Shown one piece after another: positions 1-43,879 of a stretch of DNA of 64,000 bases. Each line of letters opens with the position of its first letter. The stretch's first letter is position 1. Under the pieces are notes generated by a model that was not told the DNA's origin, searched no databases, and was given only the letters and a program-made list of their open reading frames with translations. Both the position numbers and the translations under genes were made by a program. Source of the stretch: an uncultured candidate division Zixibacteria bacterium (lineage in GTDB: Bacteria; Zixibacteria; MSB-5A5; UBA10806; 4484-95); assembly GCA_963668625.2 (NCBI GenBank), contig CAXXKA010000005.1, positions 64,001 to 128,000 of the forward strand. The letters run 5' to 3'.

Positions 1-162
1 GATTTCCCTGATACACTGGACGTTATTATCTCCGGCGATTCACCTTTATATTTCAAGGCCCGCTCTCATTACTGGTCGTATAGTGATTCAATATCCGCTA
101 CGCTTTACATAAAAGATGTACTTGAGTCAACGCATACCGTATACCTTTATAACAAAGGATGA
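1..162 (+). pseudogene. Internally deleted remnant of the toxin gene (middle region joined out of frame to the last codons of a toxin C-terminus); runs off the left edge
   Basis: 1-154 matches 5522-5675 (DFPDTLDV...VYLYN) with one mismatch. The sequence then jumps to AAGGATGAAAAGCCATGGGAAGATTA (KDEKPWED end, cf. 2020-2046 and 6836-6862) in another frame. Frame 1 stops at 160-162. Confidence 0.75.
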
Positions 163-168
163 AAAGCC

Positions 169-1215
169 ATGGGAAGATTAACTAATTTAGGATACGTTTT
201 TACTTTTTTATTATCGATGGTTTCAATCAATAGCACTGCCGCTGCCCAATATTACTATGTTAATGGATATTCTATGGCAGAGGATGGATTGACAAACAAT
301 GTTATCTACAAAATAAGTTTGGAAACAGTCGAGGTAATTGACAGCATAGTTTTTGATAGGCAGGGGGAATTTACTTCATCAACTCCCATATCTTTACAAA
401 GGCCGGGCAGTGACTTAAAATTATTAGTTTGGGTAGGATATGGATTGCCTGGTAAAAATTCAATTCCAGACAATCCGGTTTTATCATACTATTGGATTAT
501 TAATGAACGAAATTTTAAAATAGCTGGATCTGATAGTCTGCTGAATAATATTGTTTTAGGAATTAAACCTATCGGTATAGATTCAGTAGAATTTGACTGC
601 ATCGGTTTTTCACAGGATAAAGATGTTTTAAAAAAGTACACCTTCGATAGGGATAACAATAGTTTTAGGATGATTGAACAAACCCCATATAATGAAAGGG
701 AGATCAATGATGTAAGAATTGGAGACTACACTAATCCTTATTATTTGGCGTTAAATAACCAACGAAATTACTACTATGATTTTTCTAATGATCCTGATGA
801 GCTTATAGATATCTTTAGTACCCAAAATAATATTGATGTTTCAAAGCAAATAAATGCCGGCGATCTTTCGCAGGAGAGCGTGATTTTGGGATATTCTCCG
901 GAGTATGACAATATTTACTGTTTCAATTTTCGATTCAAGATACTGGCTATGTATCCGCATCCTGAATCACCGGATTCGATTTCAAATACTCTGAGGATTA
1001 TAAACGGCGAAACATTTGATGTAATCAATACTATTAACTTTGAACTTGGTGATATTTACTTGCCGCAAGAATTAGAAAACGCCGTCTACCAGGATGGATA
1101 TCTAATTCACTATTTCGCCAAAAGCGATGGCTATGGCCGTTATGACCCCGCTTATTTGTTAATTTTCGACACCCGCACCAACGAGGCCTCGTGGCTGCGT
1201 GTGGGATGGAGGTAA
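169..1215 (+). CDS. Secreted putative immunity protein, cassette 0 (type A)
   Basis: 348 aa with an N-terminal signal peptide (…STAAA-Q). Near-duplicate of 2034..3074. Ends in the shared IFDTRTNEASWLRVGWR. Start overlaps the PWED toxin end. Confidence 0.75.
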   Translation: MGRLTNLGYVFTFLLSMVSINSTAAAQYYYVNGYSMAEDGLTNNVIYKISLETVEVIDSIVFDRQGEFTSSTPISLQRPGSDLKLLVWVGYGLPGKNSIPDNPVLSYYWIINERNFKIAGSDSLLNNIVLGIKPIGIDSVEFDCIGFSQDKDVLKKYTFDRDNNSFRMIEQTPYNEREINDVRIGDYTNPYYLALNNQRNYYYDFSNDPDELIDIFSTQNNIDVSKQINAGDLSQESVILGYSPEYDNIYCFNFRFKILAMYPHPESPDSISNTLRIINGETFDVINTINFELGDIYLPQELENAVYQDGYLIHYFAKSDGYGRYDPAYLLIFDTRTNEASWLRVGWR

Positions 1216-1263
1216 AATTTGTTCGTGGCTGGCAAAAGTTTCCGCCTGCTGCTTAGAGACAGC
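1169..1263 (+). repeat. Array junction repeat copy 1 (50-bp core 1169-1218 plus REP-like hairpin)
   Basis: ACACCCGCACCAACGAGGCCTCGTGGCTGCGTGTGGGATGGAGGTAAAAT followed by TTGTTCGTGGCTGGCA(A/G)AAGTTTCCGCCTGCTGCTTAGAGACAGC. Confidence 0.95.
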
Positions 1264-2046
1264 AATGTTACATTCTGGAGAGATTCATTATATGCCGTTG
1301 GTGGATCTTTAACAGTTGCTTGCGAAGGGTATTTGACTCCTGTTGAAAACATCAATAATTGCTTTAATATTGATACTGATAGTACAATTAATGATACTAC
1401 TACTATTCCTACAAGATTGATATTGATAGATAGTGATCCTTCAAATCAGATGTTTCTTGACTCATTACAATATGACATCGTAAAAACAATTGCATATTAT
1501 GAATGGGCTGGAAGTAGTGATAGTAGGCATTGCGATGATCCATATAATTCTCAATATAACAACTATTGGGATAATGTTATAGATGAGGGAGATACTTGTA
1601 TAGAAACCAGATTTCCTTGCGAAAATCGCTATTCTACAGCAACTGGCACAATGCAAATGTTACGTGGTACCAGGGAAAAGCTTTTTAACGGCTCGTTTGT
1701 AGGAGGTGGAGACACAACGGGATTTATTGGTTGCTCCTGGGATTGCCTCGCATGGAATTGGAAAATTAATGTATTCAATGGAAAATGGGTATATATAACT
1801 GATATGTTCCACTATATTAATAAAGATACCAATCCCCAACGAAATTGGGACTCACTTTATACTCCAGCTAGTGATTATTCGCCTGACTCAACAAATAAAG
1901 AAGATATTGCTGTTTACGGTTACCATCTAGGCTCAACAAAGATGAAAGCAATTAGAACACAAAGCGATTGGAACGATAAAGTCGTAGAAGATGAATATGT
2001 CAATAACGTAAGAAGATATAAGGATGAAAAGCCATGGGAAGATTAA
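1219..2046 (+). CDS. Orphan lytic transglycosylase (SLT/lysozyme-like) toxin C-terminal cassette 1
   Basis: SLT-like motifs: TIAYYE (putative catalytic Glu), STATGTMQM (GLMQ-like), NVFNGKW, AVYGYHLG. TTG start is supplied by the repeat. No signal peptide. Confidence 0.7.
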   Translation: MFVAGKSFRLLLRDSNVTFWRDSLYAVGGSLTVACEGYLTPVENINNCFNIDTDSTINDTTTIPTRLILIDSDPSNQMFLDSLQYDIVKTIAYYEWAGSSDSRHCDDPYNSQYNNYWDNVIDEGDTCIETRFPCENRYSTATGTMQMLRGTREKLFNGSFVGGGDTTGFIGCSWDCLAWNWKINVFNGKWVYITDMFHYINKDTNPQRNWDSLYTPASDYSPDSTNKEDIAVYGYHLGSTKMKAIRTQSDWNDKVVEDEYVNNVRRYKDEKPWED

Positions 2047-3074
2047 CTAATTTAGGATACGTTTTTACTTTTTTATTATCGATGGTTTCAATCAATAGCA
2101 CTGCCGCTGCCCAATATTATTACGTTAATGGATATTCTATGGCAGAGGATGGATTGACAAACAATGTTATCTACAAAATAAGTTTGGAAACAGTCGAGGT
2201 AATTGACAGCATAGTTTTTGATAGGCAGGGGGAATTTACTTCATCAACTCCCATATCTTTACAAAGGCCGGGCAGTGACTTAAAATTATTAGTTTGGGTA
2301 GGATATGGATTGCCTGGTAAAAATTCAATTCCAGACAATCCGGTTTTATCATACTATTGGATTATTAATGAACGAAATTTTAAAATAGCTGGATCTGATA
2401 GTCTGCTGAATAATATTGTTTTAGGAATTAAACCTATCGGTATAGATTCAGTAGAATTTGACTGCATCGGTTTTTCACAGGATAAAGATGTTTTAAAAAA
2501 GTACACCTTCGATAGGGATAACAATAGTTTTAGGATGATTGAACAAACCCCATATAATGAAATTGAGATAAATAATGAAAGAATTGGAGACTACATTTTT
2601 CCTCACTACCTGGCGGAAAATAATCAGCGTAACTACTATTATGATTTTTTGCGTCATCCAAACATATATATATTTAGTACCCAAAATAATATTGATGTTT
2701 CAAAGCAAATAAATGCTGGCGATCTTTCACAGGAGAGTGTGATTTTGGGATATTCTCCGGAGTATGATAATATCTACTGTTTTAATTTTCGATACAAGAT
2801 ACTGGCAATGTATCCGCATCCCGAATCACCGGATTCGATTTCAAATACTCTGAGGATTATAAACGGCGAAACATTTGATGTAATCAATACTATTAATTTT
2901 GAACTGGGTGATATTTACTTGCCTAAAGAATACAATAAAGCTGATTATCAGGATGGATATCTAATTCACTATTTTGCCAAAAGCGATGGCTATGGCCGTT
3001 ATGACCCCGCTTATTTGTTAATTTTTAACACCCGCACCAACGAGGCCTCGTGGCTGCGTGTGGGATGGAGGTAA
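2034..3074 (+). CDS. Secreted putative immunity protein, cassette 1 (type A')
   Basis: 346 aa with signal peptide; 13-nt overlap with the upstream toxin stop; shared C-terminus. Confidence 0.75.
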   Translation: MGRLTNLGYVFTFLLSMVSINSTAAAQYYYVNGYSMAEDGLTNNVIYKISLETVEVIDSIVFDRQGEFTSSTPISLQRPGSDLKLLVWVGYGLPGKNSIPDNPVLSYYWIINERNFKIAGSDSLLNNIVLGIKPIGIDSVEFDCIGFSQDKDVLKKYTFDRDNNSFRMIEQTPYNEIEINNERIGDYIFPHYLAENNQRNYYYDFLRHPNIYIFSTQNNIDVSKQINAGDLSQESVILGYSPEYDNIYCFNFRYKILAMYPHPESPDSISNTLRIINGETFDVINTINFELGDIYLPKEYNKADYQDGYLIHYFAKSDGYGRYDPAYLLIFNTRTNEASWLRVGWR

Positions 3075-3122
3075 AATTTGTTCGTGGCTGGCAGAAGTTT
3101 CCGCCTGCTGCTTAGAGACAGC
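3028..3122 (+). repeat. Array junction repeat copy 2
   Basis: Identical 50-bp core plus REP-like hairpin. Confidence 0.95.
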
Positions 3123-3923
3123 GAGGTTACATTCTGGAGAGATTCATTGTATGCTGTAGGTGGTTCGTTAACTGTTGCGTGCCAGGGGTATTTATCCCCG
3201 GTTGAAAATATCAATAATTGCTTTCAAATAGATACTGACAGTACATTAAATGATTCTACTAAAATCCCAGATTTATTGATACTTATTGATCGAGATCCAC
3301 CAAACGCTTTATTCTCTGATAGTCTTGGTACAGATAGAAATAGGGCTATTGCATGGGCTGAAGCCGCAGGCACTTTGGATATAACTCATTGTCATAATCC
3401 ATATAATCCCTTATGGAATCATTACTGGGATACCAGAATAAGCGGGGCGGATACATGCTACGATACGCGTACTCCTTGTGAAAATGCTGGTGGCACCGAT
3501 ACTGGGATAATGCAGATATATAGAACTGTATGGGATACAGTATTTACCACACCAAGTAGCTTCCCACAATATCCCGCTGGCTTTACAATATGCAAACGGG
3601 ATAGTCTGGAATGGAATTGGATGATTTGTATACATAATGGACGGTGGATACTGGAAGATTGTATGCCTGCACGTATGAAAGCTTCTCAACAAGCTTGGCC
3701 TGAATCTTGTTCATATGCAGATTGTGATTCTGTTCCTGATATGCCTAACCAAGAAGACTTAGCTAATTATGGTTATCATGCAGGTGAAGGCAGAATGAGG
3801 ATTATTGATACTGAAAAACTATGGAAACAAAAGATATTTAAACCTAATAATCTTTTTGAAATCGATTGGGCAAATTATATTAAGAATGTAAGGAGGATAA
3901 AGTATAATGGAAATTTATGGTAA
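3078..3923 (+). CDS. Orphan lytic transglycosylase-like toxin cassette 2
   Basis: Motifs RAIAWAE, GTDTGIMQI, CIHNGRWIL, ANYGYHAG; Cys-rich; TTG start inside the repeat. Confidence 0.7.
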   Translation: MFVAGRSFRLLLRDSEVTFWRDSLYAVGGSLTVACQGYLSPVENINNCFQIDTDSTLNDSTKIPDLLILIDRDPPNALFSDSLGTDRNRAIAWAEAAGTLDITHCHNPYNPLWNHYWDTRISGADTCYDTRTPCENAGGTDTGIMQIYRTVWDTVFTTPSSFPQYPAGFTICKRDSLEWNWMICIHNGRWILEDCMPARMKASQQAWPESCSYADCDSVPDMPNQEDLANYGYHAGEGRMRIIDTEKLWKQKIFKPNNLFEIDWANYIKNVRRIKYNGNLW

Positions 3924-4935
3924 AAACGCGATAGGCATTCTGTTAGCTGTGTCTATTTGCGCGAGCATTTGCTTTGCACAGCAATATGCAGTCAATACCT
4001 ACGATGAAGACTCTCCCGGTTTTCCCAAAAGGATTAAAACAGTTTTTATAGACCTTGAAAATAAAAATATAATTGAAAGTGTTGTAATTGGTGAACAAGG
4101 TCAAATAATTAATAAAACACCATTAGTCATAAAAAAGCAATCTGATTCGTTGTTAATTACTGTAGTCATGGAAAGATGTTATTGCGATAATGCAACATTA
4201 GGGCAAACCAGAGCAAGAATTACCTTATTTGATTTTGAGTCCATAAGAATTTTAGATTCTTATGATGATACTAGCCTATTTATTACTTCTCTAGAACAAC
4301 TTGAAGGCGAGAGAATTTATATGTCCGGTTCGTTAATTTACGATCATAATAGAACAATTAAAGGCATATATACTCTTAACAATGTTTTTCATTTAAATTT
4401 GGAGGAATCGAGATCTCGGGATTATTCTTACAATCTATTAGATGGCATAAATAACTTTGATTTACTTGAGCTGGTTGATACGCGATTAAATTTATATAAG
4501 ACATCAAATGGTTCACAACGTTTTATTTTACGGATAAATAACTCCAGAGACCAGTTGTTAGATTCATTAGTTTTAGATAATGAACCTTACAGAAGCCAAG
4601 TTTTTGCCATAAAGGATACACTTATTTATGTATTCAATCAAAATTATGAAATTCATATGGAATTTACGACAAAAAATCGCGAAGATAATTGGATTGATAG
4701 TCATGTTAAGTTGTATGATTTAAGCGATTTCTCTTTAATTGATTCAATACCATTACCTGATTATCCTGAAAACGACTATATAGGCGGTGATTTTAATAAA
4801 GCTGATGTAGTCGGTGACTTTATCGTATATTACTTTTTTGGTAGAGAGGGCTTAACCCGTTATGCTCCAGCCATGCTATTCATTTTCGACACCCGCACCA
4901 ACGAGGCCTCGTGGCTGCGTGTGGGATGGAGGTAA
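3907..4935 (+). CDS. Secreted putative immunity protein, cassette 2 (type B)
   Basis: 342 aa with signal peptide (…ICFA-Q); overlaps the toxin stop by 17 nt; ends YAPAMLFIFDTRTNEASWLRVGWR. Confidence 0.75.
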   Translation: MEIYGKNAIGILLAVSICASICFAQQYAVNTYDEDSPGFPKRIKTVFIDLENKNIIESVVIGEQGQIINKTPLVIKKQSDSLLITVVMERCYCDNATLGQTRARITLFDFESIRILDSYDDTSLFITSLEQLEGERIYMSGSLIYDHNRTIKGIYTLNNVFHLNLEESRSRDYSYNLLDGINNFDLLELVDTRLNLYKTSNGSQRFILRINNSRDQLLDSLVLDNEPYRSQVFAIKDTLIYVFNQNYEIHMEFTTKNREDNWIDSHVKLYDLSDFSLIDSIPLPDYPENDYIGGDFNKADVVGDFIVYYFFGREGLTRYAPAMLFIFDTRTNEASWLRVGWR

Positions 4936-4983
4936 AATTTGTTCGTGGCTGGCAGAAGTTTCCGCCTGCTGCTTAGAGACAGC
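4889..4983 (+). repeat. Array junction repeat copy 3
   Basis: Identical core plus hairpin; diverges from copies 2 and 4 after GAGGTTA at 4990. Confidence 0.95.
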
Positions 4984-5064
4984 GAGGTTAAATGGCGTAG
5001 TAAAGGGGCAGATGAGGTTATTTACCATCTTAGAACAATAATTTTAATAATATTACATAATTGC

Positions 5065-5094
5065 TTGACAAAATAGAATACCCTAGCGCATATT
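5065..5094 (+). promoter_or_regulatory. Possible sigma70 promoter inside the array
   Basis: TTGACA at 5065-5070, 18-bp spacer, CATATT at 5089-5094; AT-rich upstream. Confidence 0.35.
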
Positions 5095-5443
5095 ACAGCA
5101 TATTGGAGCAGGCAGTTTAGGAGCAGGTTACTTTTACTTCCCCGGAGAACAAATACTTGTATGTGAAGAACAGCCGGTACTCTCGGAAAATTGCTGGCTT
5201 GAGGATGTATTATCTTGGCCGCCAAGGATTTTAATAACGAATGTCGATGTAGTATGGCCTGATGGTCGAGAGTATGAACATACAAGTTTATACGGTTGCG
5301 GGTGTATAATAGGGGAAGACTACCAGGATACTGTACGTAAAATAAACGGACTTGGTTATATAAGGTTTATAAATAGTGGCTTTCCATATTTCTGGCCTGT
5401 TTGTGAAGGTTATATTATTTATGATACTTATGCATTTACCTGT

Positions 5444-6862
5444 ATGAGAACCCCATGCCAGGGCGGTGGAGGTGCATTTGAGCCAAAACAATCGATAGCT
5501 TTTACTGATTCATTATATAATGATTTCCCTGATACACTGGACGTTATTATCTCCGGCGATTCACCTTTATATTTCAAGGCCCGCTCTCATTACTGGTCGT
5601 ATAGTGATTCAATATCCGCTACGCTTTACATAAAAGATGTACTTGAGTCAACGCATACCGTGTACCTTTATAACAGCGGTGATTCATGTTTTTATGGCAG
5701 CTTTGAAAACAGTAAAGAGCTTGGATTGAAATCATTCGGTATGGCACATATCGACATCGATTCGGTACGATTAGAATTAGATCCTTTTGCCGTTACTTTC
5801 GATGAAGTTGGTGTTTGTCTGCCGAAGCTAATAACCTCAACCGATACCGTTATTATCAATCATTCTGATATGAAAGTAAGCGCGGATTTTATAGCCGGCC
5901 TGGAGATAATACATGATGTAACCGGGGATAGAGTAGAGCCTGCCGAGATTGTTGATAGTGTTGGGTACAGGTACAAAAGCAAATGGGTATCTAATACAAG
6001 TTATTCTAAAACAACTAAACATAAAATATTCTATCGCTCCTTTCCAGATGATACTACGAAGTCATTGTGGTGGGACGGTAACAGAGATAGTTGTAGTGTA
6101 ACTTTTTGTAGAGATTCATTGTATGCGGTTGGGGGTTCTCTATCAGTTGCTTGCGAAGGGTATTTGACTCCTGTTGAAAACATCAATAATTGCTTTAATA
6201 TTGATACTGATAGTACAATTAATGATACTACTACTATTCCTACAAGATTGATATTGATTGATAGTGATCCTTCGAATCAGATGTTTCTTGACTCATTACA
6301 ATATGACATTATTAAAGCTATTGCATGGCAGGAATATGCTGGCAGTAATGATGGAACTCATTGTACGCCTTATCATAATCGATATAATAATTATTGGGAT
6401 AGTAGAATTACTGAAAGTGATACATGTCTCGATACGAGATTCCCTTGCGAAAATCGCTTATCTACAGCCACAGGTATAATGCAAATGTTACGTAGTACTT
6501 GGGAGAACTTATTTAATTTAAGCGGCGTTTATACTGAGCCCGATAGTTTTTATGCATGTAAATGGGATAGTTTAGCTTGGAGTTGGAAGATAAATATATT
6601 TAATGGTAAATATATCCATCAAAAAAGCTGCTTTTATCATATGACCAGTGCACAAAAGGCATGGGATTCTTTATATACTCCAGCTTCTGATTATACACCT
6701 GATTCTACTAATAGAGAAGATTTAGCTACTTATGGTTATAAAGAAGGTAGCACGTTTATGAGAAAAATTAGAACTTTAAAAGACTGGAATACTAAAATTA
6801 AATCGTTTTTTTACGTAAATAACGTAAGAATGTATAAGGATGAAAAGCCATGGGAAGATTAG
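5444..6862 (+). CDS. Longer lytic transglycosylase-like toxin cassette 3 (probably 5'-truncated; frame open from 5087)
   Basis: C-terminal part has AIAWQE, STATGIMQM, NIFNGKY and ATYGYKEG. Extra N-terminal region present. The frame has no stop back to TAG at 5084-5086 and no ATG/GTG/TTG before 5444. Confidence 0.7.
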   Translation: MRTPCQGGGGAFEPKQSIAFTDSLYNDFPDTLDVIISGDSPLYFKARSHYWSYSDSISATLYIKDVLESTHTVYLYNSGDSCFYGSFENSKELGLKSFGMAHIDIDSVRLELDPFAVTFDEVGVCLPKLITSTDTVIINHSDMKVSADFIAGLEIIHDVTGDRVEPAEIVDSVGYRYKSKWVSNTSYSKTTKHKIFYRSFPDDTTKSLWWDGNRDSCSVTFCRDSLYAVGGSLSVACEGYLTPVENINNCFNIDTDSTINDTTTIPTRLILIDSDPSNQMFLDSLQYDIIKAIAWQEYAGSNDGTHCTPYHNRYNNYWDSRITESDTCLDTRFPCENRLSTATGIMQMLRSTWENLFNLSGVYTEPDSFYACKWDSLAWSWKINIFNGKYIHQKSCFYHMTSAQKAWDSLYTPASDYTPDSTNREDLATYGYKEGSTFMRKIRTLKDWNTKIKSFFYVNNVRMYKDEKPWED

Positions 6863-7878
6863 TTCAATTAACCTCATTAATTATGACTATAGCGGTCATT
6901 ACATCATTAGTGAATGCTCAAACGATATATCTTAACTCATATGCATTAGATGAGAGATCAATAAGCAATTTTATTTATAAAGTTAATATAGAAAGCCAAT
7001 CTATTGAGGATTCACTATTTTTACCAACCAATGGATCTTTCTGTATGAAAAAGCCAATTATAGTTGATTATAGTAACAGTAGTTATATTCTCTCATTTTG
7101 GGTAAATGGATTGTATGCTAAAAACTCGCAACTTGGAATACATACTACATCTCATTATTGCGCCGTTGATATGGAGACATTCGATATGGTTAATTGTGAT
7201 AGTCTTCTTGATGTAATGGTAGGTGATAAATACTCGTATGATAATGACACTTTGATTGTTGAATTATATGAAGAAAATACCGGTGTATGGGAAGAAAGTA
7301 AATTATTATTTGATAGGGATAACAGACTAATTGAGCAAAGTAGCCGAAATTTAACAAGACAAGATTTAGAATCTATTATGGTTGGTAATTATGTTGAACC
7401 TGATATAATTTTCTCACAGGATACTATTAGCTATTATTGGGGGTATGAGGATGTTGGTGAAAATTCATATGTTAATTTACTTGCGGTTATTGATAGTGAT
7501 ATTATTTTTGAAAAGAGAATTGCCGATAGAGTATCTGCAAATATCATTGTGGGATTTAATTCAGAAACAAATATGATATATGCATTTATTTTACCTTTTA
7601 AGCTTCTATCATATAATCCAATCGAACAATCGCCTGAAAATATAACACCTGAAATACTAGTAATTAGTCCGGATAATTTTGAAATAGTGCAAACTCTTAA
7701 TATTGATATGGGAGATATATATCTGGGTCGTGAAACTGGAAACTGTAGTTCATTCGATTCCTATTTATACTATTACTTCTTCCTCCAAGATGGTGTTGGC
7801 CGTTATGACCCCGCTTATTTGTTAATTTTTAACACCCGCACCAACGAGGCCTCGTGGCTGCGTGTGGGATGGAGGTAA
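6850..7878 (+). CDS. Secreted putative immunity protein, cassette 3 (type C)
   Basis: 342 aa with signal peptide (…LVNA-Q); 13-nt overlap with the toxin; ends GRYDPAYLLIFNTRTNEASWLRVGWR. Confidence 0.75.
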   Translation: MGRLVQLTSLIMTIAVITSLVNAQTIYLNSYALDERSISNFIYKVNIESQSIEDSLFLPTNGSFCMKKPIIVDYSNSSYILSFWVNGLYAKNSQLGIHTTSHYCAVDMETFDMVNCDSLLDVMVGDKYSYDNDTLIVELYEENTGVWEESKLLFDRDNRLIEQSSRNLTRQDLESIMVGNYVEPDIIFSQDTISYYWGYEDVGENSYVNLLAVIDSDIIFEKRIADRVSANIIVGFNSETNMIYAFILPFKLLSYNPIEQSPENITPEILVISPDNFEIVQTLNIDMGDIYLGRETGNCSSFDSYLYYYFFLQDGVGRYDPAYLLIFNTRTNEASWLRVGWR

Positions 7879-7926
7879 AATTTGTTCGTGGCTGGCAGAA
7901 GTTTCCGCCTGCTGCTTAGAGACAGC
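7832..7926 (+). repeat. Array junction repeat copy 4
   Basis: Identical core plus hairpin; lies within a 465-bp tract (7797-8261) that reads identical to 2993-3457. Confidence 0.95.
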
Positions 7927-8742
7927 GAGGTTACATTCTGGAGAGATTCATTGTATGCTGTAGGTGGTTCGTTAACTGTTGCGTGCCAGGGGTATTTATC
8001 CCCGGTTGAAAATATCAATAATTGCTTTCAAATAGATACTGACAGTACATTAAATGATTCTACTAAAATCCCAGATTTATTGATACTTATTGATCGAGAT
8101 CCACCAAACGCTTTATTCTCTGATAGTCTTGGTACAGATAGAAATAGGGCTATTGCATGGGCTGAAGCCGCAGGCACTTTGGATATAACTCATTGTCATA
8201 ATCCATATAATCCCTTATGGAATCATTACTGGGATACCAGAATAAGCGGGGCGGATACATGTTCTGATACTCATATGCCATGTGAAAATGCGATTGGTGT
8301 TGATACTGGTGTTATGCAAATATATAGACAATGGAAACCACAGAGTTCTACAGATACAAGTGGTTGGGCATTACATTTTGCTAGATCAAATAGTAAACCT
8401 AGTGGGTATATACAAGTAATGTGGGATAGCCTTGCTTGGAATTGGGCTATATGCATTTATAATGGCAAATACATTCACGATGTATATATGCCATCAAGAT
8501 TTACTTCTGCGCAAAAACTTTTTCCAGATTCATGCTCTTACGCTAACTGCGACACTTTTCCGTTAAATGCTAATAAAGAAGACTTAAAAAGCTATGGATA
8601 TCATAGAGGTGACCCTGAGATGAAATCAATCACAACTATTAATTGGAATGAAATGGTTGCTGATACTACTGATCCTATTAGCGATGGAGCACAATATGTA
8701 CAAAGAGTTAGATTGTTCAAATATACAAAACCATGGGAGTAA
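7882..8742 (+). CDS. Orphan lytic transglycosylase-like toxin cassette 4
   Basis: Motifs RAIAWAE, GVDTGVMQI, CIYNGKYI, KSYGYHRG; first ~127 aa identical to cassette 2, then divergent. Confidence 0.7.
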   Translation: MFVAGRSFRLLLRDSEVTFWRDSLYAVGGSLTVACQGYLSPVENINNCFQIDTDSTLNDSTKIPDLLILIDRDPPNALFSDSLGTDRNRAIAWAEAAGTLDITHCHNPYNPLWNHYWDTRISGADTCSDTHMPCENAIGVDTGVMQIYRQWKPQSSTDTSGWALHFARSNSKPSGYIQVMWDSLAWNWAICIYNGKYIHDVYMPSRFTSAQKLFPDSCSYANCDTFPLNANKEDLKSYGYHRGDPEMKSITTINWNEMVADTTDPISDGAQYVQRVRLFKYTKPWE

Positions 8743-9800
8743 AAATGAATTGTAGATTAAGATTCATTGGATTAGTTTGTTGGATAATATTATTACACTC
8801 ATTAGCTTTGTCGGAAGCATATGTTGTGCATTCATATACAAGCAACAATCCTACTTCTTACAATGTATCAGTAAGCCTAATTAATCTTAATACACTGGAA
8901 ATAATCGACAATATTGAATTACCTATGACTGGCACAATAATGAACAAAAAGCCAATAGTGGTACTTGTGGATGACCAGGAATTGTTTTTATGTTTTACCC
9001 TTAATGGATGTATGGGGAAAAACGCAGATTTATCAGGTAACGGAGAAGTGTTGTATTATTCCGTGTATACAATTCGTGATAATTCTATACAGCTATTGCA
9101 TACCGATAGCTTGAGTGCCGTTATCGTTGATTACGTAGAGCAACTTCAGGGAGAGTCAGGTTTCAGATTGTCAATAAGGGATGCCCTGCGTGATAATTAT
9201 CTATTTGATCCGGGTTTATACTCAATCGATAATAATTTTGATTTTAGTCCAATCAGTCCAATTGAAAATGACAATGAAATGCCAGGTTACATTGAGCAGA
9301 TTGATGAATTCGAAAACTTGAATATTATTCGAAATGCAGAAGCAGATCATCTTTATTATTCATTTCATAATTCTCAATACTGGCTTTTAAAACTTGATAC
9401 TCGGGATAATTCAATAGTTGATTCTCTTCAACTAAGATATTCTGGCGGTCAAGCGACTATTTTTGGTTATCATCCATTGAGAGATAAGTTTTATTGTTTT
9501 CACACTAACTATGAGATCCATGGGAAATTCGTGGAGAAAAGCAGAGAGAACTATTATATCACGCCTGATGTCCAAATATATAATCCTTTAACATTGGAGT
9601 TGATGGAAAGCTTTGGAATACCGGACTATCCCGAGGGCAATTACCCCGGAAAAGAAAACGGCGCTTTCGATACGGTCGGTGATTATATAATTTATTATTT
9701 TTTTGAGGATGACTGGTTTCCAGTATATGCTCCAGCTATGCTATTCATTTTTAACACCCGCACCAACGAGGCCTCGTGGCTGCGTGTGGGATGGAGGTAA
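8733..9800 (+). CDS. Secreted putative immunity protein, cassette 4 (type D)
   Basis: 355 aa with signal peptide; overlaps the toxin PWE end by 10 nt; ends YAPAMLFIFNTRTNEASWLRVGWR. Confidence 0.75.
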   Translation: MGVKMNCRLRFIGLVCWIILLHSLALSEAYVVHSYTSNNPTSYNVSVSLINLNTLEIIDNIELPMTGTIMNKKPIVVLVDDQELFLCFTLNGCMGKNADLSGNGEVLYYSVYTIRDNSIQLLHTDSLSAVIVDYVEQLQGESGFRLSIRDALRDNYLFDPGLYSIDNNFDFSPISPIENDNEMPGYIEQIDEFENLNIIRNAEADHLYYSFHNSQYWLLKLDTRDNSIVDSLQLRYSGGQATIFGYHPLRDKFYCFHTNYEIHGKFVEKSRENYYITPDVQIYNPLTLELMESFGIPDYPEGNYPGKENGAFDTVGDYIIYYFFEDDWFPVYAPAMLFIFNTRTNEASWLRVGWR

Positions 9801-9804: not shown

Positions 9805-11286
9805 ATGTATAAGTATATAGCTTTACTACTCATTACATTAACTTTCAGATTTGCCTTTGGCGAACCGCAAGTTAGTACAACAACTTTTTTGAATTCCACT
9901 GAACCAACTAAGATGTGTCAGGATTACATTGATAAAGAATATGGCGCCTTGTCAAGAGCTATGCTTAAGCCTACTGGCGGCGCGCTTATCAGAGTTAATA
10001 TGTTGACCAGCACATATTGCAAGTTTATTTTTTGTGATGAACCGGCAAACCGTTTATATATTTTCCATCTTCTGGATACATCACCTGTAAGAACGCCCGT
10101 CAGAATGTCTACGTATGGCTTACAGAAAGATCCCGTATGGTTCAGTATAACTCACGAGGACTCATTAATACCTGATACGATAACAGCTCCATCCATGGAT
10201 AGGGATAGTATTGGCTATTTCTGGAGTCCCGTTGATATCGCAGTTTCCTCATGCGGAAATACCTATTACACGAATCATGATTATATATATGTTGTTGATA
10301 GCGGAAACCGCAGAATTGTCAAACTTCGCTACGATATAATGACTGATTCAATCCTCTGGATCGGTAGTTTTGGAGATGATATTCTAATTGATCCAACCGC
10401 GATCGACTATGCCGATTACAATGATGCTGATACGACTAATGATGATGTTTACGTAACGGATGGTTATCACGCTAAAATATTTCGGTTCTCCGCTACCGGT
10501 GAATACGAAACCTCATACGGCGGGCGAGGCACGAGCCTGGCGGAAATAGGTTATCCGACGGGAATTGCGGTTTCCACAGATACCCAATTGCCTGATAGAA
10601 TTTATATTACCGATTCGAAATACCATCGAGTCATCCGCTATTATTCCGGTACGAGCGGCCCGATAGTAGCTCAAAAACAATATAAATTCCCTCATTATCT
10701 ACCCGGTGATAATAAAGTGCCATATCTAAGCGCTATTGATACGGATGGCGCTGGTAATGTATATGTTTTAGATAGATTTGCGCACAAAATGTATATCCTA
10801 TCAGGCGACATAGAATCAAGAATTAAGGAATATGGAGAATATGGTTTCGGACTGATGCAGTTTAATCACCCATCGGATATTTATATTGATCATACACCGG
10901 TAAACGAGGAGATGGTCGTCTGCGAGATGTGGGATACCACTTCAGGTATTCAATCGTTCGATATTTCCTACAGTATATTTAAAGAAACGGACGAAATCCC
11001 GCTACCCAAAAAGTACAGTCTGTATCAAAATTACCCGAACCCATTCAACTCAGTCACACAAATAAAGTTTGATCTTCCTCGTCCAAGTAATGTTAAGCTG
11101 GAGATTTTTAATATTCTTGGTCAAAAAGTTAAAACTATAAAAAATGATGTAATGCCTGCGGGAAGTCATGCTATTGTTTGGAAAGGCGAAAATGACGCTG
11201 GTGATGAGATATCATCCGGTATGTATTTTTATAAGCTAAGCACATCTGATTATACCGAATCCCGAAAAATGTTATTGCTAAAATAA
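9805..11286 (+). CDS. Secreted NHL-repeat beta-propeller protein with C-terminal sorting-type (T9SS-A-like/FlgD Ig) domain
   Basis: ATG at 9805 follows GGAGG of the repeat; signal peptide MYKYIALLLITLTFRFAFG; NHL repeats (IYVVDSGNRRI, PTGIAV); CTD QNYPNPFN…SSGMYFYKL…KMLLLK. Confidence 0.85.
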   Translation: MYKYIALLLITLTFRFAFGEPQVSTTTFLNSTEPTKMCQDYIDKEYGALSRAMLKPTGGALIRVNMLTSTYCKFIFCDEPANRLYIFHLLDTSPVRTPVRMSTYGLQKDPVWFSITHEDSLIPDTITAPSMDRDSIGYFWSPVDIAVSSCGNTYYTNHDYIYVVDSGNRRIVKLRYDIMTDSILWIGSFGDDILIDPTAIDYADYNDADTTNDDVYVTDGYHAKIFRFSATGEYETSYGGRGTSLAEIGYPTGIAVSTDTQLPDRIYITDSKYHRVIRYYSGTSGPIVAQKQYKFPHYLPGDNKVPYLSAIDTDGAGNVYVLDRFAHKMYILSGDIESRIKEYGEYGFGLMQFNHPSDIYIDHTPVNEEMVVCEMWDTTSGIQSFDISYSIFKETDEIPLPKKYSLYQNYPNPFNSVTQIKFDLPRPSNVKLEIFNILGQKVKTIKNDVMPAGSHAIVWKGENDAGDEISSGMYFYKLSTSDYTESRKMLLLK

Positions 11287-11289
11287 AAA

Positions 11290-11311
11290 AAGGCGTTCAC
11301 CAGAACGCCTT
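11290..11311. terminator. Intrinsic terminator hairpin between convergent genes
   Basis: AAGGCGTTC-ACCA-GAACGCCTT preceded by an A-run. Confidence 0.7.
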
Positions 11312-11320
11312 CAAATCATC

Positions 11321-11345
11321 GTGGCCGGCAGACATCCCCGTCTGC
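11321..11345 (+). repeat. GTGG-foot REP-like palindrome
   Basis: GTGGCCGGCAGACATCCCCGTCTGC; related to 12390, 43931, 44159, 54471 and to the array hairpin. Confidence 0.6.
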
Positions 11346-11361
11346 GGCCGCAGCAAAAATC

Positions 11362-12210
11362 CTAATCTTTAAACATATGCTTGGCTATAAATATGACATT
11401 CTCACGTCGTTCCCGGAGCCGTCTGAGGAAATACGGCAGCCAGTGAGTGCCGAACGGGGTGTAGATACGCATGTTGTAGTCCTGGTCGGCAAGCTCGCGC
11501 TGGGCCGAGCGGTTCACGCCGTAGAGCATCTGGAATTCATATTCGGATTTGTCCTTGCCGTACTTCTCGGCTGTATCGAGCGCGGCCCGTATCATAGCGC
11601 CGTCATGAGTGGCGATAGCCGGGTAGTCGCCGTCTTTTAATAGCATGTCCGTTAGCTTGACATAGTTATTGTTGACATCATCCTTAGCCTGAAAAGCCAC
11701 GGTGGCAGGTTCGCGGTAAGCGCCTTTACACAGGCGGACACGTACGCCATGCTCGTTAAGCTTCTTGATGTCCTCCTCGGAACGATACAGGCTGGCCTGA
11801 ATGACAGTGCCCATCTTCTTGTATTTCTCATGCCATCTGTAGACGAGGTTTAGCGTCCTTTCGGTGTAGTCGGAGCCTTCCATATCGACGCGCACGAAAA
11901 TGCCCAGTTCGTTGGCTTTATCGAGAATGCGGCTGACATTGTCATAGCAAAAATCATCCGATATATCCATCCCCATCTGGGTGAGCTTGACCGAGACATG
12001 CGAATTAAGCGCATGGTCATGGATTACCTGAAGTAAATTTATATAAGCATCGGCAGTTCGTATCGCCATCTCCTGGTTTTTTACATTCTCGCCCAGAATA
12101 TCCAGTGATGTGCTCATGCCCATACCGTTAAGCTCCTTAACATACCTGATGGCTTCTTCGGGAGTCTCACCGGCAACGAATCTTTTAGCTAAAAACGTTA
12201 ATATTTTCAA
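11362..12210 (-). CDS. putB: Proline dehydrogenase (monofunctional)
   Basis: Motifs RFVAGE, SVKLTQMG, VRVDMEGS, VRLCKGAY, IATHD, EFQMLYG, YFLRRLRER; TTG at 12210 follows AGGAGG. Confidence 0.9.
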   Translation of the reverse strand: MKILTFLAKRFVAGETPEEAIRYVKELNGMGMSTSLDILGENVKNQEMAIRTADAYINLLQVIHDHALNSHVSVKLTQMGMDISDDFCYDNVSRILDKANELGIFVRVDMEGSDYTERTLNLVYRWHEKYKKMGTVIQASLYRSEEDIKKLNEHGVRVRLCKGAYREPATVAFQAKDDVNNNYVKLTDMLLKDGDYPAIATHDGAMIRAALDTAEKYGKDKSEYEFQMLYGVNRSAQRELADQDYNMRIYTPFGTHWLPYFLRRLRERRENVIFIAKHMFKD

Positions 12211-12389
12211 CGTTGACCTCCTAAAAACAGTTGTATGAAATCTAAAAAGGTAAGGCCTAATTAGCAAGTGAAATATTTATCAATCTTCCATAAGACGTTA
12301 AAATATAAGTAAATATCGCGATTATGCGGGATTATTAGTGTCGTGATAAACGGCGGATGGGGAAGGGCTGTCTTAAAAGCGTAGTTCTT

Positions 12390-12418
12390 GTGGCCGCCGG
12401 ATGTCCTCGTCCGCCGGC
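12390..12418 (+). repeat. GTGG-foot REP-like palindrome
   Basis: GTGGCCGCCGGATGTCCTCGTCCGCCGGC. Confidence 0.55.
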
Positions 12419-12557
12419 TTTCCTTTGCAGGTATACAAGTTGGGATAATCCATTTGGGCAAGCGATGACATACCCCAACCACAAACATCTTTAGTAGATA
12501 ATGACGCTTCGCTTAAAACGGATACACCGGGTAAACCGGTGTTTTTTTAGGATCAAT

Positions 12558-12586
12558 AAAAAAGCCCCGCTAAAAAGCGAGGCTTC
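12558..12586 (-). terminator. Intrinsic terminator of the 12609..14234 gene
   Basis: AAGCCCCGCT…AGCGAGGCTT hairpin with a T-run on the minus strand. Confidence 0.65.
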
Positions 12587-12608
12587 GAATTAACAACTTC
12601 GGAAAAAC

Positions 12609-14234
12609 CTATTTTAAAAGCATCATAGACTTTTGCTCGACCTCATCACCGGCATGAATCCTGTAAAAATACATACCCGAGGCGGATGAACCGGCTTTCC
12701 ATACCACTCTATGCGCACCGGCGTTCTGATCCTCATCTACGAGTGTGACAACCTTGCGGCCGAGGATATCATAAATATCCAGAGTTACCCGGCTGTCCTG
12801 TTTGATATTATACTCGATAGTAGTCGTGGCGTTAAACGGGTTGGGATAATTTTGTTTGAGCGCGAAAGAACCGGGAAGGTTATCGTTATCATCAATACCC
12901 GTCCAGAAATCAAGGGCTAAATCAATATCGGTATATATATCATAGCCGACAGTTACATTAGTGACAGTGTCCTCATCATAAACAAGCATGGGATCCTCGA
13001 AATAGATATCGTAACTACCGGGATTGATTATCTCGAGACTATAGAATCCCAGGCTGTCGGTTATAGTCATTATCGAGGGCTGACCCAGTATTGAAACCTG
13101 GATACCGCCGACAGGATCGTCATTACCGGCGAACGTGACAGTACCCGATATACCACCGGGCATGTGAAGAGTCATATCGAGTGTCGAAACAGAATCGTAA
13201 GCAGCGGTAACGGCGTAAGAGACCGTGTCGAAATAATCCGAGTGGCTGAATGTTACATCATAATCATCCGGTTCGAGCCCCCTGAATTCATAAACACCGT
13301 TCAAGCCGGTATATACCGATTGTTCGCCAATGATAACTTCGATATCGGAAATAGGATCACCGAGGTAATCGGTAACCGTACCGGATATGATACCCAGCAT
13401 ATTCAGTACGAAATCCTGGTATGTGTGCTCGTTCTCATATACCGTAATCGTAACCGAGTGTGACGCGTAATCGGGATGGTCAACAATCAGTGTGAAGTCG
13501 GTAAAAGGGTAATGACCCATATGATAGTCGCCTTCGCTATCGGTAGAAGTCTGCTTTCCTGTCTCCTCGACCGTGACATTGATTCCCTCGATCGGGTTAT
13601 CTGCTATATCAATGATAGTACCCTCGAGATAACCACCACCATTGAAATGGAACATCGGGAAAGTCTCGACCATGATATATACGTCCTCGGCGAGCGTATC
13701 ACCGGCATTTGATGGCCCCTGGTAGGGGTTCAACCCCGGGCATAATGCCAATACATCATCTCCGATATTAAGAGAATCGTTAGCGGTTTTAATTACGAAT
13801 TTGGCTGCCATATAATCACCAAGCGAGATAAACCAGGGCGATTCACTGGTGGGGTAGAACCGGGCCCAACCCATCAAAGAATGAGCCGACCAACCCTCGG
13901 GGTTCGGCGGTGAGCCGTAAGCCTCGGTAAAATACGCGCCATCCCATTCGGTCAGAGGATAATACAATTCACCCTCGGTTTCGCTTAGCAGGCTGTCCAC
14001 GTATTTATCCATAGTGCCAAGAGGCAAATGTAAATCAGCAACATGATTATTAGCGCCGGTAAAGATATAAACAGGTATATTTAAACGTTGATTGATCTCA
14101 ACGTTCATAGTCTGACCGGTTGCATTACCATATGATATATATAAACTGTCAGTTTGGCTGTACACTTTGGTTGGCGCGGCAATTAATACAATAAAAGATG
14201 CGCAAACAATAAAATATTCAAGCAATCGTTTCAC
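12609..14234 (-). CDS. Secreted protein with carboxypeptidase regulatory-like repeats and C-terminal sorting-type domain
   Basis: Signal peptide; three G.I.GTVTD..G.PI repeats; CTD QNYPNPFNATT…SGMYFYRI…MMLLK. Confidence 0.8.
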   Translation of the reverse strand: MKRLLEYFIVCASFIVLIAAPTKVYSQTDSLYISYGNATGQTMNVEINQRLNIPVYIFTGANNHVADLHLPLGTMDKYVDSLLSETEGELYYPLTEWDGAYFTEAYGSPPNPEGWSAHSLMGWARFYPTSESPWFISLGDYMAAKFVIKTANDSLNIGDDVLALCPGLNPYQGPSNAGDTLAEDVYIMVETFPMFHFNGGGYLEGTIIDIADNPIEGINVTVEETGKQTSTDSEGDYHMGHYPFTDFTLIVDHPDYASHSVTITVYENEHTYQDFVLNMLGIISGTVTDYLGDPISDIEVIIGEQSVYTGLNGVYEFRGLEPDDYDVTFSHSDYFDTVSYAVTAAYDSVSTLDMTLHMPGGISGTVTFAGNDDPVGGIQVSILGQPSIMTITDSLGFYSLEIINPGSYDIYFEDPMLVYDEDTVTNVTVGYDIYTDIDLALDFWTGIDDNDNLPGSFALKQNYPNPFNATTTIEYNIKQDSRVTLDIYDILGRKVVTLVDEDQNAGAHRVVWKAGSSASGMYFYRIHAGDEVEQKSMMLLK

Positions 14235-14448
14235 TAATTATTTCCTCCACGCTTGGTCAAAATAGTTATTCTTCATCATTTCAAATTGATTAATCCTTTG
14301 CCGTAAGATACCAATTATTAAGGATTTGTCAATACTATTTATGTAAAGTAAGGATTAATCGGAGCTAATTAATAGTAGCCTTTTTAGTATAAATATAACA
14401 GTGCAAAAGTAACATTAAATGTGCCGGTAACGGCTCGAGATGATTGGT

Positions 14449-43786: not shown

Positions 43787-43879
43787 GATTTTAGAGCAAC
43801 TGATATAAATTACATTAAGAACCCGGACAGGGTACATAATGTAGATCAAAACCCATGTGGTTTTGACGAGCGTCTTTAT

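Follow-up and report, generated by a model that had tools for sequence, protein, structure and literature searches.

The short element that recurs at the boundaries of a gene array in an uncultured candidate division Zixibacteria bacterium is a further example of the known REP/REPIN elements. Its probable source is a genome-wide REP/REPIN family of the RAYT type: the element would be one doublet's decayed left arm together with a stretch of the spacer. It is best read as a scar and passenger which marks the boundary here without having made it. The window analyzed is a stretch of 64,000 nucleotides from assembly GCA_963668625.2 (contig CAXXKA010000005.1, positions 64,001-128,000, forward strand). 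Coordinates are window positions, and the prefixes C5: and C10: denote positions on contigs of the genome.

The Gene Array and Its Boundary Element

The array consists of A, CT, and B genes and is closed, here and in related loci, by the C gene (Table 1). Three short CT genes with a (V)TFWRDSLY head each precede a B gene that encodes a signal peptide. The CTs form a single family (42-68% identity) with invariant PCE..G.MQ and WDSLAWNW motifs, and the B proteins are mutually 24-33% identical. In the long A gene the CT domain starts at RDSLY, near position 6110. ATG, GTG, and TTG are absent from this gene before 5444 and, unlike in its relatives, no signal peptide was found. The first A copy is truncated at TATAA, a further microhomology deletion within the same locus. 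A Pfam scan left seven A, CT, and B proteins without a match and two B proteins with matches below the cut-off only. A PDB profile search for their fold returned no match, a search of the Atlas gave no usable match for array proteins, and the AlphaFold2 model of an array protein had a mean pLDDT of 38.1. A toxin or immunity function of CT and B therefore has no support from Pfam, PDB, or Atlas matches.

A 34-mer on the forward strand defines the element. It was found at 1225-1258 (one mismatch, G to A at 1235), 3084-3117, 4945-4978, and 7888-7921, as reported in the preliminary description, and in 0 of 100 shuffled sequences. A fifth, identical copy lies at C5:63424, 577 nt upstream of the window start. 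The element was previously placed at each cassette boundary; this holds for four of the five B-gene ends in the window, but the B gene ending at 9800 abuts the next gene directly. In this genome, the element sits where the short CT genes are severed from the remainder of the long A gene. The copies at 1225, 3084, and 7888 end after 46 nt, and those at 4945 and C5:63424 are full decayed doublets upstream of the promoter of a long A gene. At 4945 the doublet is followed after approximately 38 nt by a TTGACA promoter-like box and then by the A gene; its spacer measures 32 nt, compared with 24-25 nt in free doublets. The identical 46 nt are thus found in three contexts: terminator/REP/promoter, B/REP/promoter, and B/REP/CT.

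Table 1. Features of the array, its flanks, and free members of the REP family
Feature	Position	Strand	Remarks
50-nt direct repeat, left copy	C5:63386-63435		Just upstream of the window
B gene	169-1215		REP relic copy 1 next
Short CT gene	1219-2046		Built like the 3078-3923 gene
REP relic copy 1	1225-1270	+	34-nt decayed hairpin arm and 12 nt of doublet spacer; B 169-1215 / CT 1219-2046
B gene	2034-3074		REP relic copy 2 next
Short CT gene	3078-3923	+	Putative TTG start 6 nt past the GGAGG of the B tail
REP relic copy 2, 46 nt	3084-3129	+	B 2034-3074 / short CT 3078-3923
B-gene 3' tail, conserved (...PAMLFIFDTRTNEASWLRVGWR*)	4861-4935	+	Ends GGAGG TAA; left half of the homology block
Full decayed REP doublet	4945-5026	+	Left arm 4945-4972, spacer 4973-5004, inverted right arm 5005-5026
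Long A gene	5087-6862	+	Frame open from 5087
B gene	6850-7878		REP relic copy 4 next
Short CT gene	7882-8742		Built like the 3078-3923 gene
REP relic copy 4, 46 nt	7888-7933	+	B 6850-7878 / short CT 7882-8742
C gene	9805-11286	+	NHL-repeat protein with T9SS C-terminal sorting domain
50-nt direct repeat, right copy	11283-11332	+	Terminator hairpin, CAAATCATC, first 12 nt of REP
Free REP, intact	11321-11349	+	Between convergent genes
Free REP	12390-12418	+	Heads a longer composite repeat
Free REP doublet	43871-43958	-	Left arm 43924-43958 is the nearest copy to the array relic

A Genome-Wide REP Family

A genome-wide nhmmer profile search recovered 49 matches at E <= 0.01 and 94 at E < 10. The family has a GTGG foot, a stem of approximately 10 bp, and a TCCT loop. 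Of 48 distinct copies, 43-47 have the foot and 42-46 show pairing at stem pairs 7-13/20-26; pair 10-23 shows A-T/G-C exchange. By a crude ORF-based gene call (86% coding fraction), 44 of the 49 matches are intergenic, with 18 in convergent, 20 in co-directional, and 4 in divergent gaps; convergent gaps are over-represented relative to divergent ones. Eleven facing inverted pairs were detected by profile, and about 15 doublets of approximately 85 nt can be seen. Thirteen of 31 related Zixibacteria genomes contain a degenerate 25-mer of the family; its reversed control occurred in none.

The array element is a member of this family, as previously proposed, though a decayed one. Compared with the free palindrome at 43924-43958 (minus strand), it agrees at 29 of 35 positions (500 shuffles, z = 12.1), which bears out the likeness noted earlier, and it differs from this nearest free copy by five substitutions and one indel. 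The right arm at 5005-5026 matches the right arm of another doublet, C10:336850, at 26 of 28 positions (z = 10.7). Moreover, the 12-nt head GTGGCTGGCAGA occurs 17 times in the genome, where 0.33 occurrences are expected from composition; 13 of these lie within recognisable family members and four within the array. Of the six relatives listed in the preliminary description, 43924 (E = 2.8e-9), 11321 (E = 1.7e-5), 12390 (E = 0.0022), and 44159 (E = 0.011) belong to the family by the nhmmer profile. The one at 54471 proved to be a half-hairpin heading a longer composite repeat (E = 0.25), and 22425 had no significant family match in the genome-wide search (E = 5.7).

The array copies retain the foot of a REP and have lost its stable hairpin. 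Folded as DNA, they reach an MFE of -4 kcal/mol, which is matched by 91 of 200 shuffles (z = -0.14); the free copies reach -8.7 to -11.6 kcal/mol (z = -3.1 to -3.5). This loss makes them poorly suited to be RAYT substrates or stems that stabilise RNA, the two roles suggested at the outset. A RAYT gene flanked by the family was also looked for. In this genome, none of the nine Y1_Tnp/RAYT ORFs has a family match within 2 kb and all nine are flanked by other repeats; on the NCBIfam RAYT profile, seven ORFs score above the cut-off of 80 and one just below it (72.6 bits). Such a gene was found in a relative, G013: family copies lie on either side of a 176-aa ORF that scores 108 bits against NCBIfam REP_Tyr_transpos (cut-off 80). 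In genome G002, three family copies lie within 300 nt upstream of a RAYT ORF.

Comparison With Known Systems

The closest known systems are the REP/REPIN elements with their RAYT (TnpA-REP) proteins, namely the REP/BIME of E. coli and the REPINs of Pseudomonas fluorescens, as described in PMC3116915 and PMC8266576. Like these, the family consists of short palindromes, extragenic and headed by a conserved tetranucleotide at the 5' end (GTGG in this case), is found in tens of copies mostly past gene ends, forms inverted doublets with a short spacer, and flanks a RAYT gene in the relative G013. In contrast, the foot reads GTGG instead of GTAG, the search of this genome gave no cognate RAYT adjoining the family, the 25-mer core is common to several families of the phylum, and the array copies are dead, with the hairpin lost and three of them shortened to 46 nt.

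The position of the element at novel joints of duplicated and deleted segments also has parallels. REP sequences at the join-points of tandem duplications were reportedly described by Shyamala, Schneider and Ames in 1990 (EMBO J 9:939), and van der Ende et al. are said to have described in 1999 a porA deletion between REP clusters. The likeness lies in a REP placed exactly at the joint, with the repeat as the short homology. Here, however, the joints belong to a gene-pair array, the REP has since decayed into a longer homogenised junction block, and the mechanism is deduced from sequence.

Orphan CT-immunity cassette arrays occur in polymorphic toxins (CdiA-CT/CdiI, Rhs). The present array resembles them in that a long gene comes first and shorter copies of its C-terminal part come after it, every copy has a small gene for an exported protein as its downstream partner, and the short copies retain a piece of the conserved pre-CT region (the RDSLY head). 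Unlike in those arrays, the CTs are one family rather than unrelated toxin domains, the 3' tail of the downstream B gene forms the conserved boundary, and each short gene has a start codon of its own. Integron attC sites likewise place an imperfect palindrome at each cassette boundary. An attC or other site-specific cassette site was rejected: a Pfam scan of ten locus ORFs gave no integrase or recombinase domain, the copies at the boundaries do not fold, and the element belongs to a dispersed REP family.

Junctions and Breakpoints

The sequence of the B tail at 4861-4935 also terminates the B genes ending at 1215, 3074, 7878, and 9800. Over their last 60 nt, all five B genes agree at 25-30 of 30 positions per bin; the four REP-bearing junctions do so over the next 60 nt as well, and bins further upstream in the B genes fall to 5-21 of 30. 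The homology block at the junctions is approximately 120 nt long. Since the relics are near-identical and the neighboring genes only 24-33% identical, the relics were probably spread by duplication or gene conversion within this block. Furthermore, the four copies have both flanks in common, which indicates one event that was copied rather than four insertions.

The sequence right after the hairpin ('RDS...') had been taken as toxin-derived. This is probably not the case, because the 46 nt up to GAGGTTA also occur in the copies that lie ahead of a promoter and not of a toxin fragment, and TTAGAGACAGC resembles the spacers of free doublets. Clear A-gene homology begins approximately 12-16 nt later, at (V)TFWRDSLY. 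However, 'RDS' also matches the A gene (NRDSCSVTFCRDSLY), so that a reverse transfer, from junction to doublet, may have occurred.

Three breakpoints fall within or next to REP sequence. One is the doublet's left edge, one lies in the doublet spacer, and the third is where the 50-nt direct repeat ends, inside a REP stem. The two copies of this repeat bracket 11.9 kb, the whole array. Three separate REP breakpoints in one locus are more than a pure passenger would predict. Separately, one contig appears to be joined across the 50-nt terminator and REP direct repeat.

Related Arrays

The boundary hairpin that the preliminary description expected in related arrays was largely missing. The REP profile gave no match at E < 1 in related arrays of nine genomes (98,851 nt) and in four further loci, and the REP-core hairpin is absent from 58 of 61 distinct junctions. 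Three independent related junctions carry a family hairpin directly after the B tail, and two of these adjoin truncated pieces. In L050, a B-tail remnant is followed by the REP and then by the last 33 codons of a CT. In L064, the remnant is followed by the REP and then a promoter, with the REP arm 38 nt upstream of a TTGACAAA box; box and spacing are the same as in this genome. In L075, a family hairpin lies beside a B-tail remnant. The array is absent from the same-genus genomes G001 and G002, and the array-bearing lineage is sampled by one genome.

Proposed History and Alternative Explanations

The following order of events is suggested by the junction sequences. The inter-unit spacer (B stop, short spacer, REP, 38 nt, promoter, A) would have been a rare non-coding gap able to host a REP, and in this lineage a second REP would have arrived directly after the B stop codon, producing the doublet. 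A tandem duplication of the [doublet-promoter-A-B] module may then have created a B/doublet/promoter junction like that at 4945. Next, the sequence between the doublet spacer and a point in the A gene shortly ahead of the CT domain would have been deleted, possibly at an AGAGA..AG microhomology, leaving a B/46-nt relic/CT junction. The relic would thereby have become embedded, with the 60-75-nt B tail as one conserved arm and the CT head as the other, and have lengthened the homology block by 46 nt. It could have been carried to all junctions, or kept identical there, by unequal crossing-over or gene conversion. As a side effect, the relic would supply the TTG start and a 20-codon leader to the short CT genes.

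The earlier suggestion that a REP marks or mediates the truncation point thus stands in its first part, with several breakpoints in REP; no evidence for mediation was found, and the reading as an active recombination site, probably incorrect, was not adopted. A broader but speculative idea, which we regard as unlikely, is that the A-B arrays of Zixibacteria are seeded and reshuffled at REPs, which would act as recurrent break-and-join points. The B tail (…TCGTGGCTGCGTGTGGGATGGAGG), with its REP-head-like motifs, would attract REP insertion after the stop codon, and REP nicking or hairpin-stalled replication would yield truncated CT and B pieces. If true, this would account for the three REP breakpoints in the locus, for the hairpins beside B-tail remnants in L050, L064, and L075, and for the 50-nt terminator and REP repeat that brackets the array and across which one contig appears to be joined.

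It is quite unlikely that the array copies themselves are, or recently were, working RAYT substrates or fragile hairpins, with REPs driving the cassettes and nicking or replication stalling making the truncations and joins. The GTGG foot as in RAYT-recognised REPs, the family copies around the RAYT gene of G013, the RAYT ORFs encoded in this genome, the three breakpoints, and the truncated B and CT pieces next to the REPs of L050 and L064 are all compatible with such activity. Nevertheless, the array copies fold no better than shuffles, and the activity of E. coli TnpA-REP depends on the structural integrity of the REP, according to PMC8266576. The other repeats around all nine Y1_Tnp ORFs, the missing hairpin at most related junctions, and the shared flanks of the four copies argue in the same direction.

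Retention of the relic for RNA or translation, either as a stabilising or attenuating mRNA stem or as start codon and leader of the short CT genes, is a distinctly improbable alternative to the scar and passenger reading. The first 20 codons of the short CT gene at 3078-3923 do run through the relic (MFVAGRSFRLLLRDSEVTFW), and in all three short genes the TTG lies 6 nt past GGAGG with the frame open through the relic into the CT. These three in-frame copies are identical by descent, however, and thus give no independent support. Related arrays, whose short CT genes likewise start with ATG, GTG, or TTG 3-15 nt past the preceding B stop, manage without the relic. As RNA, the relic forms an imperfect hairpin of -12 kcal/mol, which leaves room for some RNA role, but its fold is not significant (z = -1.3, with 23 of 200 shuffles folding equally well; z = +1.47 in a 101-nt context, with 192 of 200). 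By our own count, family copies lie on the same strand as co-directional flanking genes in 10 cases and on the opposite strand in 10; this lack of bias points to a DNA element.

Chance resemblance, with the 34-mer merely part of a conserved junction and unrelated to the REP family, is very hard to maintain: the array copies score only 13.3 bits in the whole-genome profile search (E = 0.23-0.26), but the element reaches E = 7.5e-4 in a search of the 12.5-kb locus, the 12-nt head lies in family members in 13 of 13 cases outside the array, two independent arms match two different free doublets, and the copy at C5:63424 shares its terminator and CAAATCATC left flank with the intact REP at 11321.

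The array and its genomic setting

The array lies on the + strand and fills the first 11.3 kb of the window. It is built from a long gene (A), short genes corresponding to its C-terminal part (CT), paired downstream genes (B) and a closing gene (C). The source genome (4.3 Mb, 45% G+C, 10 contigs) belongs to Candidatus Zixiibacteriota according to the titles of related-locus records, and within it the A/CT and B protein families are confined to the array locus. The array is A+T-rich: its G+C content is 32-41% per kb, whereas that of the genome is 45%. In G002, a genome of the same genus, the flanking GAF-domain and proline-dehydrogenase-like genes are directly adjacent and no array is present, so that the source genome holds ~13.8 kb extra. 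A 545-aa ORF beside the array, just upstream of the window (C5:61708-63345; 13708-15345 in the extracted locus L001), matches the NCBIfam antiphage model GapS1 (E = 5.8e-23, with 81.5 bits where the cut-off is 320), which places the array next to a possible defence gene, inside the stretch missing in G002.

A first copy of A spans C5:63566 to window 159. Over 198 codons it matches the second copy at 99.5% identity; beyond them, an internal deletion at a TATAA microhomology has fused it to the final codons of a CT. The second copy has no ATG, GTG or TTG before codon 120 (5087-5444) and no signal peptide, which the A genes of relatives (loci L024, L025 and L064) do have. Both long A genes thus look damaged, the first within window 1-168 and the second within 5087-5444. 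The 11.9 kb comprising the array and the C gene are bracketed by a 50-nt direct repeat (43 nt exact; C5:63386-63435 and window 11283-11332) in which a terminator and CAAATCATC precede the initial 12 nt of a REP. Among contigs from three runs of one sample (X1-X3), those of X2 and X3 lead from the C gene through this repeat into the right flank, and no joints were reported in the contigs of the three runs.

Coordinates of array genes, REP-bearing sites and Y1_Tnp ORFs (window positions unless prefixed by a contig, C1 to C10, or an extracted locus, L002, of the source genome)
Feature	Position	Strand	Remarks
Long A gene	5087-6862	+	second A copy
Short CT genes (n = 3)	1219-2046, 3078-3923, 7882-8742	+	repeat the C-terminal part of A
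B genes (n = 5)	169-1215, 2034-3074, 3907-4935, 6850-7878, 8733-9800	+	~345-aa proteins with signal peptides
B tails	1141-1215, 3000-3074, 4861-4935, 7804-7878, 9726-9800	+	also in related loci L023-L029 and L043-L084
C gene	9805-11286	+	closes the array; NHL repeats and T9SS sorting domain
Y1_Tnp ORF sites	C8:101960-103234, C8:173781, C1:536537, C1:312930, C4:43960, C1:580602, C8:593398, C6:132117		
Composite repeat sites	54471-54570, 12390-12480, C4:39152-39320, C8:832956-833036		
In-frame REP doublets	L002 6198-6285, 7913-8000, 10965-11052 (C4:70198, 71913, 74965)		in T9SS beta-helix genes

A REP-like element at the array junctions

A 34-mer was found at 1225 (one mismatch), 3084, 4945 and 7888, with a match in 0 of 100 shuffles, and a fifth copy lies just before the window at C5:63424. 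The preliminary description had placed a REP-like element at each cassette boundary; the element does follow four of the five B genes in the window, but it is missing after the last, whose stop (9800) leads directly into the C gene. Compared with the nearest free copy (43924-43958, - strand), the 34-mer is identical at 29 of 35 positions (z = 12.1). The copies at 4945 and C5:63424 extend 54 nt further, where 32 nt of spacer lead to an inverted right arm at 5005-5026, which matches the right arm of a free doublet at C10:336850 at 26 of 28 positions (z = 10.7). With both arms present, these two copies are full but decayed doublets, and ~38 nt beyond them a TTGACA box is followed by an A gene.

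The remaining copies (1225, 3084 and 7888) share the first 46 nt, up to GAGGTTA, and then continue as CATTCTGGAGAGATTC..., which encodes (V)TFWRDSLY, the head of the CT domain. The 'RDS' segment directly after the hairpin had been taken for toxin-derived sequence, which it probably is not, as it belongs to the 46 nt that the promoter-side copies have as well. Similar sequence is present in free-doublet spacers (TTAAGAGTAGCAG at 43924 and TTATGGGTAGCG at C10:336850) and also in an NRDS segment of the A gene, AGAGATAGT. Judged by sequence, such likeness could be the kind of microhomology at which a deletion joined the doublet spacer to A. Folded as DNA, the array element has an MFE of -4 kcal/mol, no better than its shuffles (z = -0.14; equalled by 91 of 200). 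An exact search of metagenome contigs for the 34-mer returned 0 matches.

The genome-wide REP family and its RAYT genes

A profile built from close matches in the source genome gave 49 matches at E <= 0.01 and 94 at E < 10, which bears out the earlier proposal of a genome-wide REP-like element. The family consensus combines a GTGG foot with a ~10-bp stem and a loop reading TCCT or TCCC. Of 48 distinct copies, 43-47 have the foot and 42-46 form stem pairs 7-13/20-26, with A-T, G-C and G-T alternating at one pair. As DNA, free copies fold at -8.7 to -11.6 kcal/mol (z = -3.1 to -3.5). A crude gene call based on ORFs, with 86% coding, puts 44 of the 49 matches between genes: 18 where the genes converge, 20 where they are co-directional and 4 where they diverge. 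Among the co-directional cases, 10 elements lie on the gene strand and 10 on the other, an absence of strand bias to be expected of a DNA element more than of an RNA one. Many copies form inverted doublets of ~85 nt with a spacer of 24-25 nt. Some head a longer composite repeat (>120 nt, about a dozen sites) that reads REP half-hairpin, ...CCAAAAG.ATGGTT., full REP, TTTCGTTAGCAGGCA.ACCAGTTG.GGCAC..., CGAGGACGTACCCCAACCAC.

An Rfam search of the whole window at gathering thresholds returned tRNA only, with no family over the element, and an E-value search of 11200-12650 gave chance-level matches only. A degenerate 25-mer core (one mismatch allowed) occurs 26 times in the source genome and in 13 of 31 related genomes; the reversed pattern, used as a control, was absent from all of these genomes. 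The free family shows the REP/REPIN hallmarks as PMC3116915 and PMC8266576 define them; with its GTGG foot, it is a REP/REPIN family of the ordinary kind.

The source genome contains nine Y1_Tnp ORFs. When the eight strongest were compared with the NCBIfam model REP_Tyr_transpos (cut-off 80 bits), seven passed and one scored 72.6 bits. No match to the studied family was found within 2 kb of any of the nine. Each is flanked by its own repeat, distinct from the studied family, so that they look like RAYTs of other REP families and several REP/RAYT systems coexist in this genome. The cognate RAYT of the studied family was not located here. In relatives, members of the family do lie beside RAYT genes: G013, of the same order, encodes a 176-aa RAYT (108 bits) with family copies on both sides, and G002 a 160-aa RAYT (113 bits) with three copies <=300 nt upstream. 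The family is therefore RAYT-associated in the clade.

A near-uniform block around the junctions

The same 46 nt were found in three contexts, namely terminator/REP/promoter (C5:63424), B/REP/promoter (4945) and B/REP/CT (1225, 3084 and 7888). All four B/REP joints read GGAGGTAAAATTTGTTC|GTGGC. To their left the B proteins are 24-33% identical, save for one pair at 94%, and to their right the CTs are 50-70% identical. In 30-nt bins, 25-30 of 30 positions are identical over the final 60 nt when all five B genes are compared, and again over the next 60 nt of the four REP-bearing junctions, against 5-21 of 30 farther upstream. These identities place the element inside a block of ~120 nt that has been kept uniform between old, divergent units. 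In our reading, the element was copied between junctions through unequal crossing-over or gene conversion, for which the B tail and the CT head served as anchors. Four independent insertions were rejected, since all four B/REP joints share both flanks. An integron-like site was also rejected, as a Pfam scan of 10 locus ORFs showed no recombinase domain and the boundary copies have no fold.

Junctions in related arrays

The CT family was detected in 9 of 60 related genomes searched, and the B tail in 11 genome loci and 37 metagenome loci. Short CT genes of relatives start with ATG, GTG or TTG 3-15 nt after the B stop (for example GGAGGTAACGACTATGTATCGCGATTCC in L043) and keep the pre-CT region to varying lengths. 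At E < 1 the REP profile had no match in 98,851 nt from nine genomes, nor in four further loci. Moreover, a REP-core hairpin within 130 nt was absent from 58 of 61 distinct B-tail junctions (65 related loci). A hairpin of the family follows a B-tail remnant in L050, where the last 33 codons of CT come next, and in L064, where the TTGACAAA box of the source genome follows 38 nt later, then a full A with a signal peptide; in L075 (= L076) B tail and hairpin are followed by the contig end. The 38-nt spacing in L064 is that of the right arm in the source genome. A REP upstream of the A promoter thus seems to have long been part of the inter-unit spacer, to which the present lineage would have added the left arm beside the B stop.

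Origin of the junction element

REPs and REPINs are usually discussed as selfish or regulatory hairpins. That they can also serve passively, as short stretches of portable homology where duplications join, is known from a small number of older cases in enterobacteria and Neisseria, and REPs have reportedly been recorded at the joints of duplications or deletions. A limited full-text search found, in the text available, no work linking REPs to orphan cassettes.

The array element is probably the scar of a decayed REP. REPs would have come to occupy the array's one sizeable non-coding gap, and a tandem duplication of the module of doublet, promoter, A and B would have followed. A deletion reaching from the spacer of the doublet into A could have left a short CT gene with 46 nt of REP at its head, after which the junction block would have been homogenised across units. 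On this sequence evidence the element may add 46 nt of homology and supply the short genes with a candidate TTG start 6 nt after GGAGG and a 20-codon leader, MFVAGRSFRLLLRDSEVTFW.

A more active role of the REP in array rearrangement is unlikely. Three breakpoints do fall in REP sequence (the left edge of the doublet, its spacer and the end of the 50-nt direct repeat), and the hairpins of L050 and L064 sit by truncated pieces. One X1 contig also runs from the left flank of the direct repeat straight into the right copy of the repeat (11283); such a contig would arise from an allele without the array, but also from an assembly path through the 43 nt of exact repeat, and the two origins are indistinguishable here. 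The suggestion in the preliminary description that a REP may mediate the cassette boundary is not supported, given the lack of a fold in the element and of a hairpin at nearly all related junctions. An RNA or translation role is similarly unlikely: as RNA the element has an MFE of -12 kcal/mol with z = -1.3, and nothing was found in the 101-nt context. With its 12-nt head occurring 17 times in the genome against 0.33 expected, and 13 of 13 occurrences outside the array lying in family members, a chance resemblance to the REP family is very hard to credit.

Read as the scar of a decayed REP, the element would be a further instance of a known phenomenon, a dead REP preserved like a fossil within the boundary block of an array of gene pairs. 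Traceable through three junction types in one array, it would leave a readable record of array growth by duplication, microhomology deletion and homogenisation of a ~120-nt boundary block. It also cautions that palindromes found at boundaries are not necessarily recombination sites, as related arrays form the same boundaries without one.

The B tail and the array proteins

The B proteins end in ...P.A.L.IF.TRTNEA.WLRVGWR and the stop, with 16 invariant positions, and the genes in GGAGG plus the stop. The last codons, GGA TGG AGG TAA, form a Shine-Dalgarno sequence for whichever gene comes next. The tail (...FDTRTNEA.WLRVGWR and stop) is conserved at the nucleotide level across Zixibacteria families and uses G+C-rich codons within A+T-rich genes. 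It includes TCGTGGCTG, the same 9 nt that span the left flank and head of the junction element.

A Pfam scan left seven A/CT/B proteins without a match and gave two B proteins below-cut-off matches only; NCBIfam and PDB profile searches of the A/CT/B proteins each gave 0 matches. AlphaFold2 with a 14-sequence alignment reached a mean pLDDT of 38.1 and no confident fold. The ESM Atlas gave no usable match for CT and weak beta-propeller-like leads only for B (0.84-0.90). A PCE..G.MQ motif may resemble the lytic-transglycosylase motif. With no family, solved relative or confident fold obtained, 'toxin' for CT and 'immunity' for B are putative labels. The array (a long exported A, short CT copies, a B with an RBS-carrying tail and an NHL/T9SS closer) is an uncharacterised system, seen so far in Zixibacteria records only, which may deserve its own study.

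REPs apparently duplicated with other genes

Intact REP doublets were also found in frame near the 5' ends of three tandem T9SS beta-helix genes, between MKKQTII and a hydrophobic LTILLLTCSIQA stretch. A doublet seems to have been inserted into the part of the gene that encodes the signal peptide and to have been duplicated together with the gene. A 388-aa transposase-like ORF on the opposite strand interrupts the second of the three gene copies. Single family REPs lie ~30 nt upstream of the RBS of tandem paralogous exported-protein genes (C8:280464 and 281809; C8:455964 and 458338), which is another case of REP-gene co-duplication.
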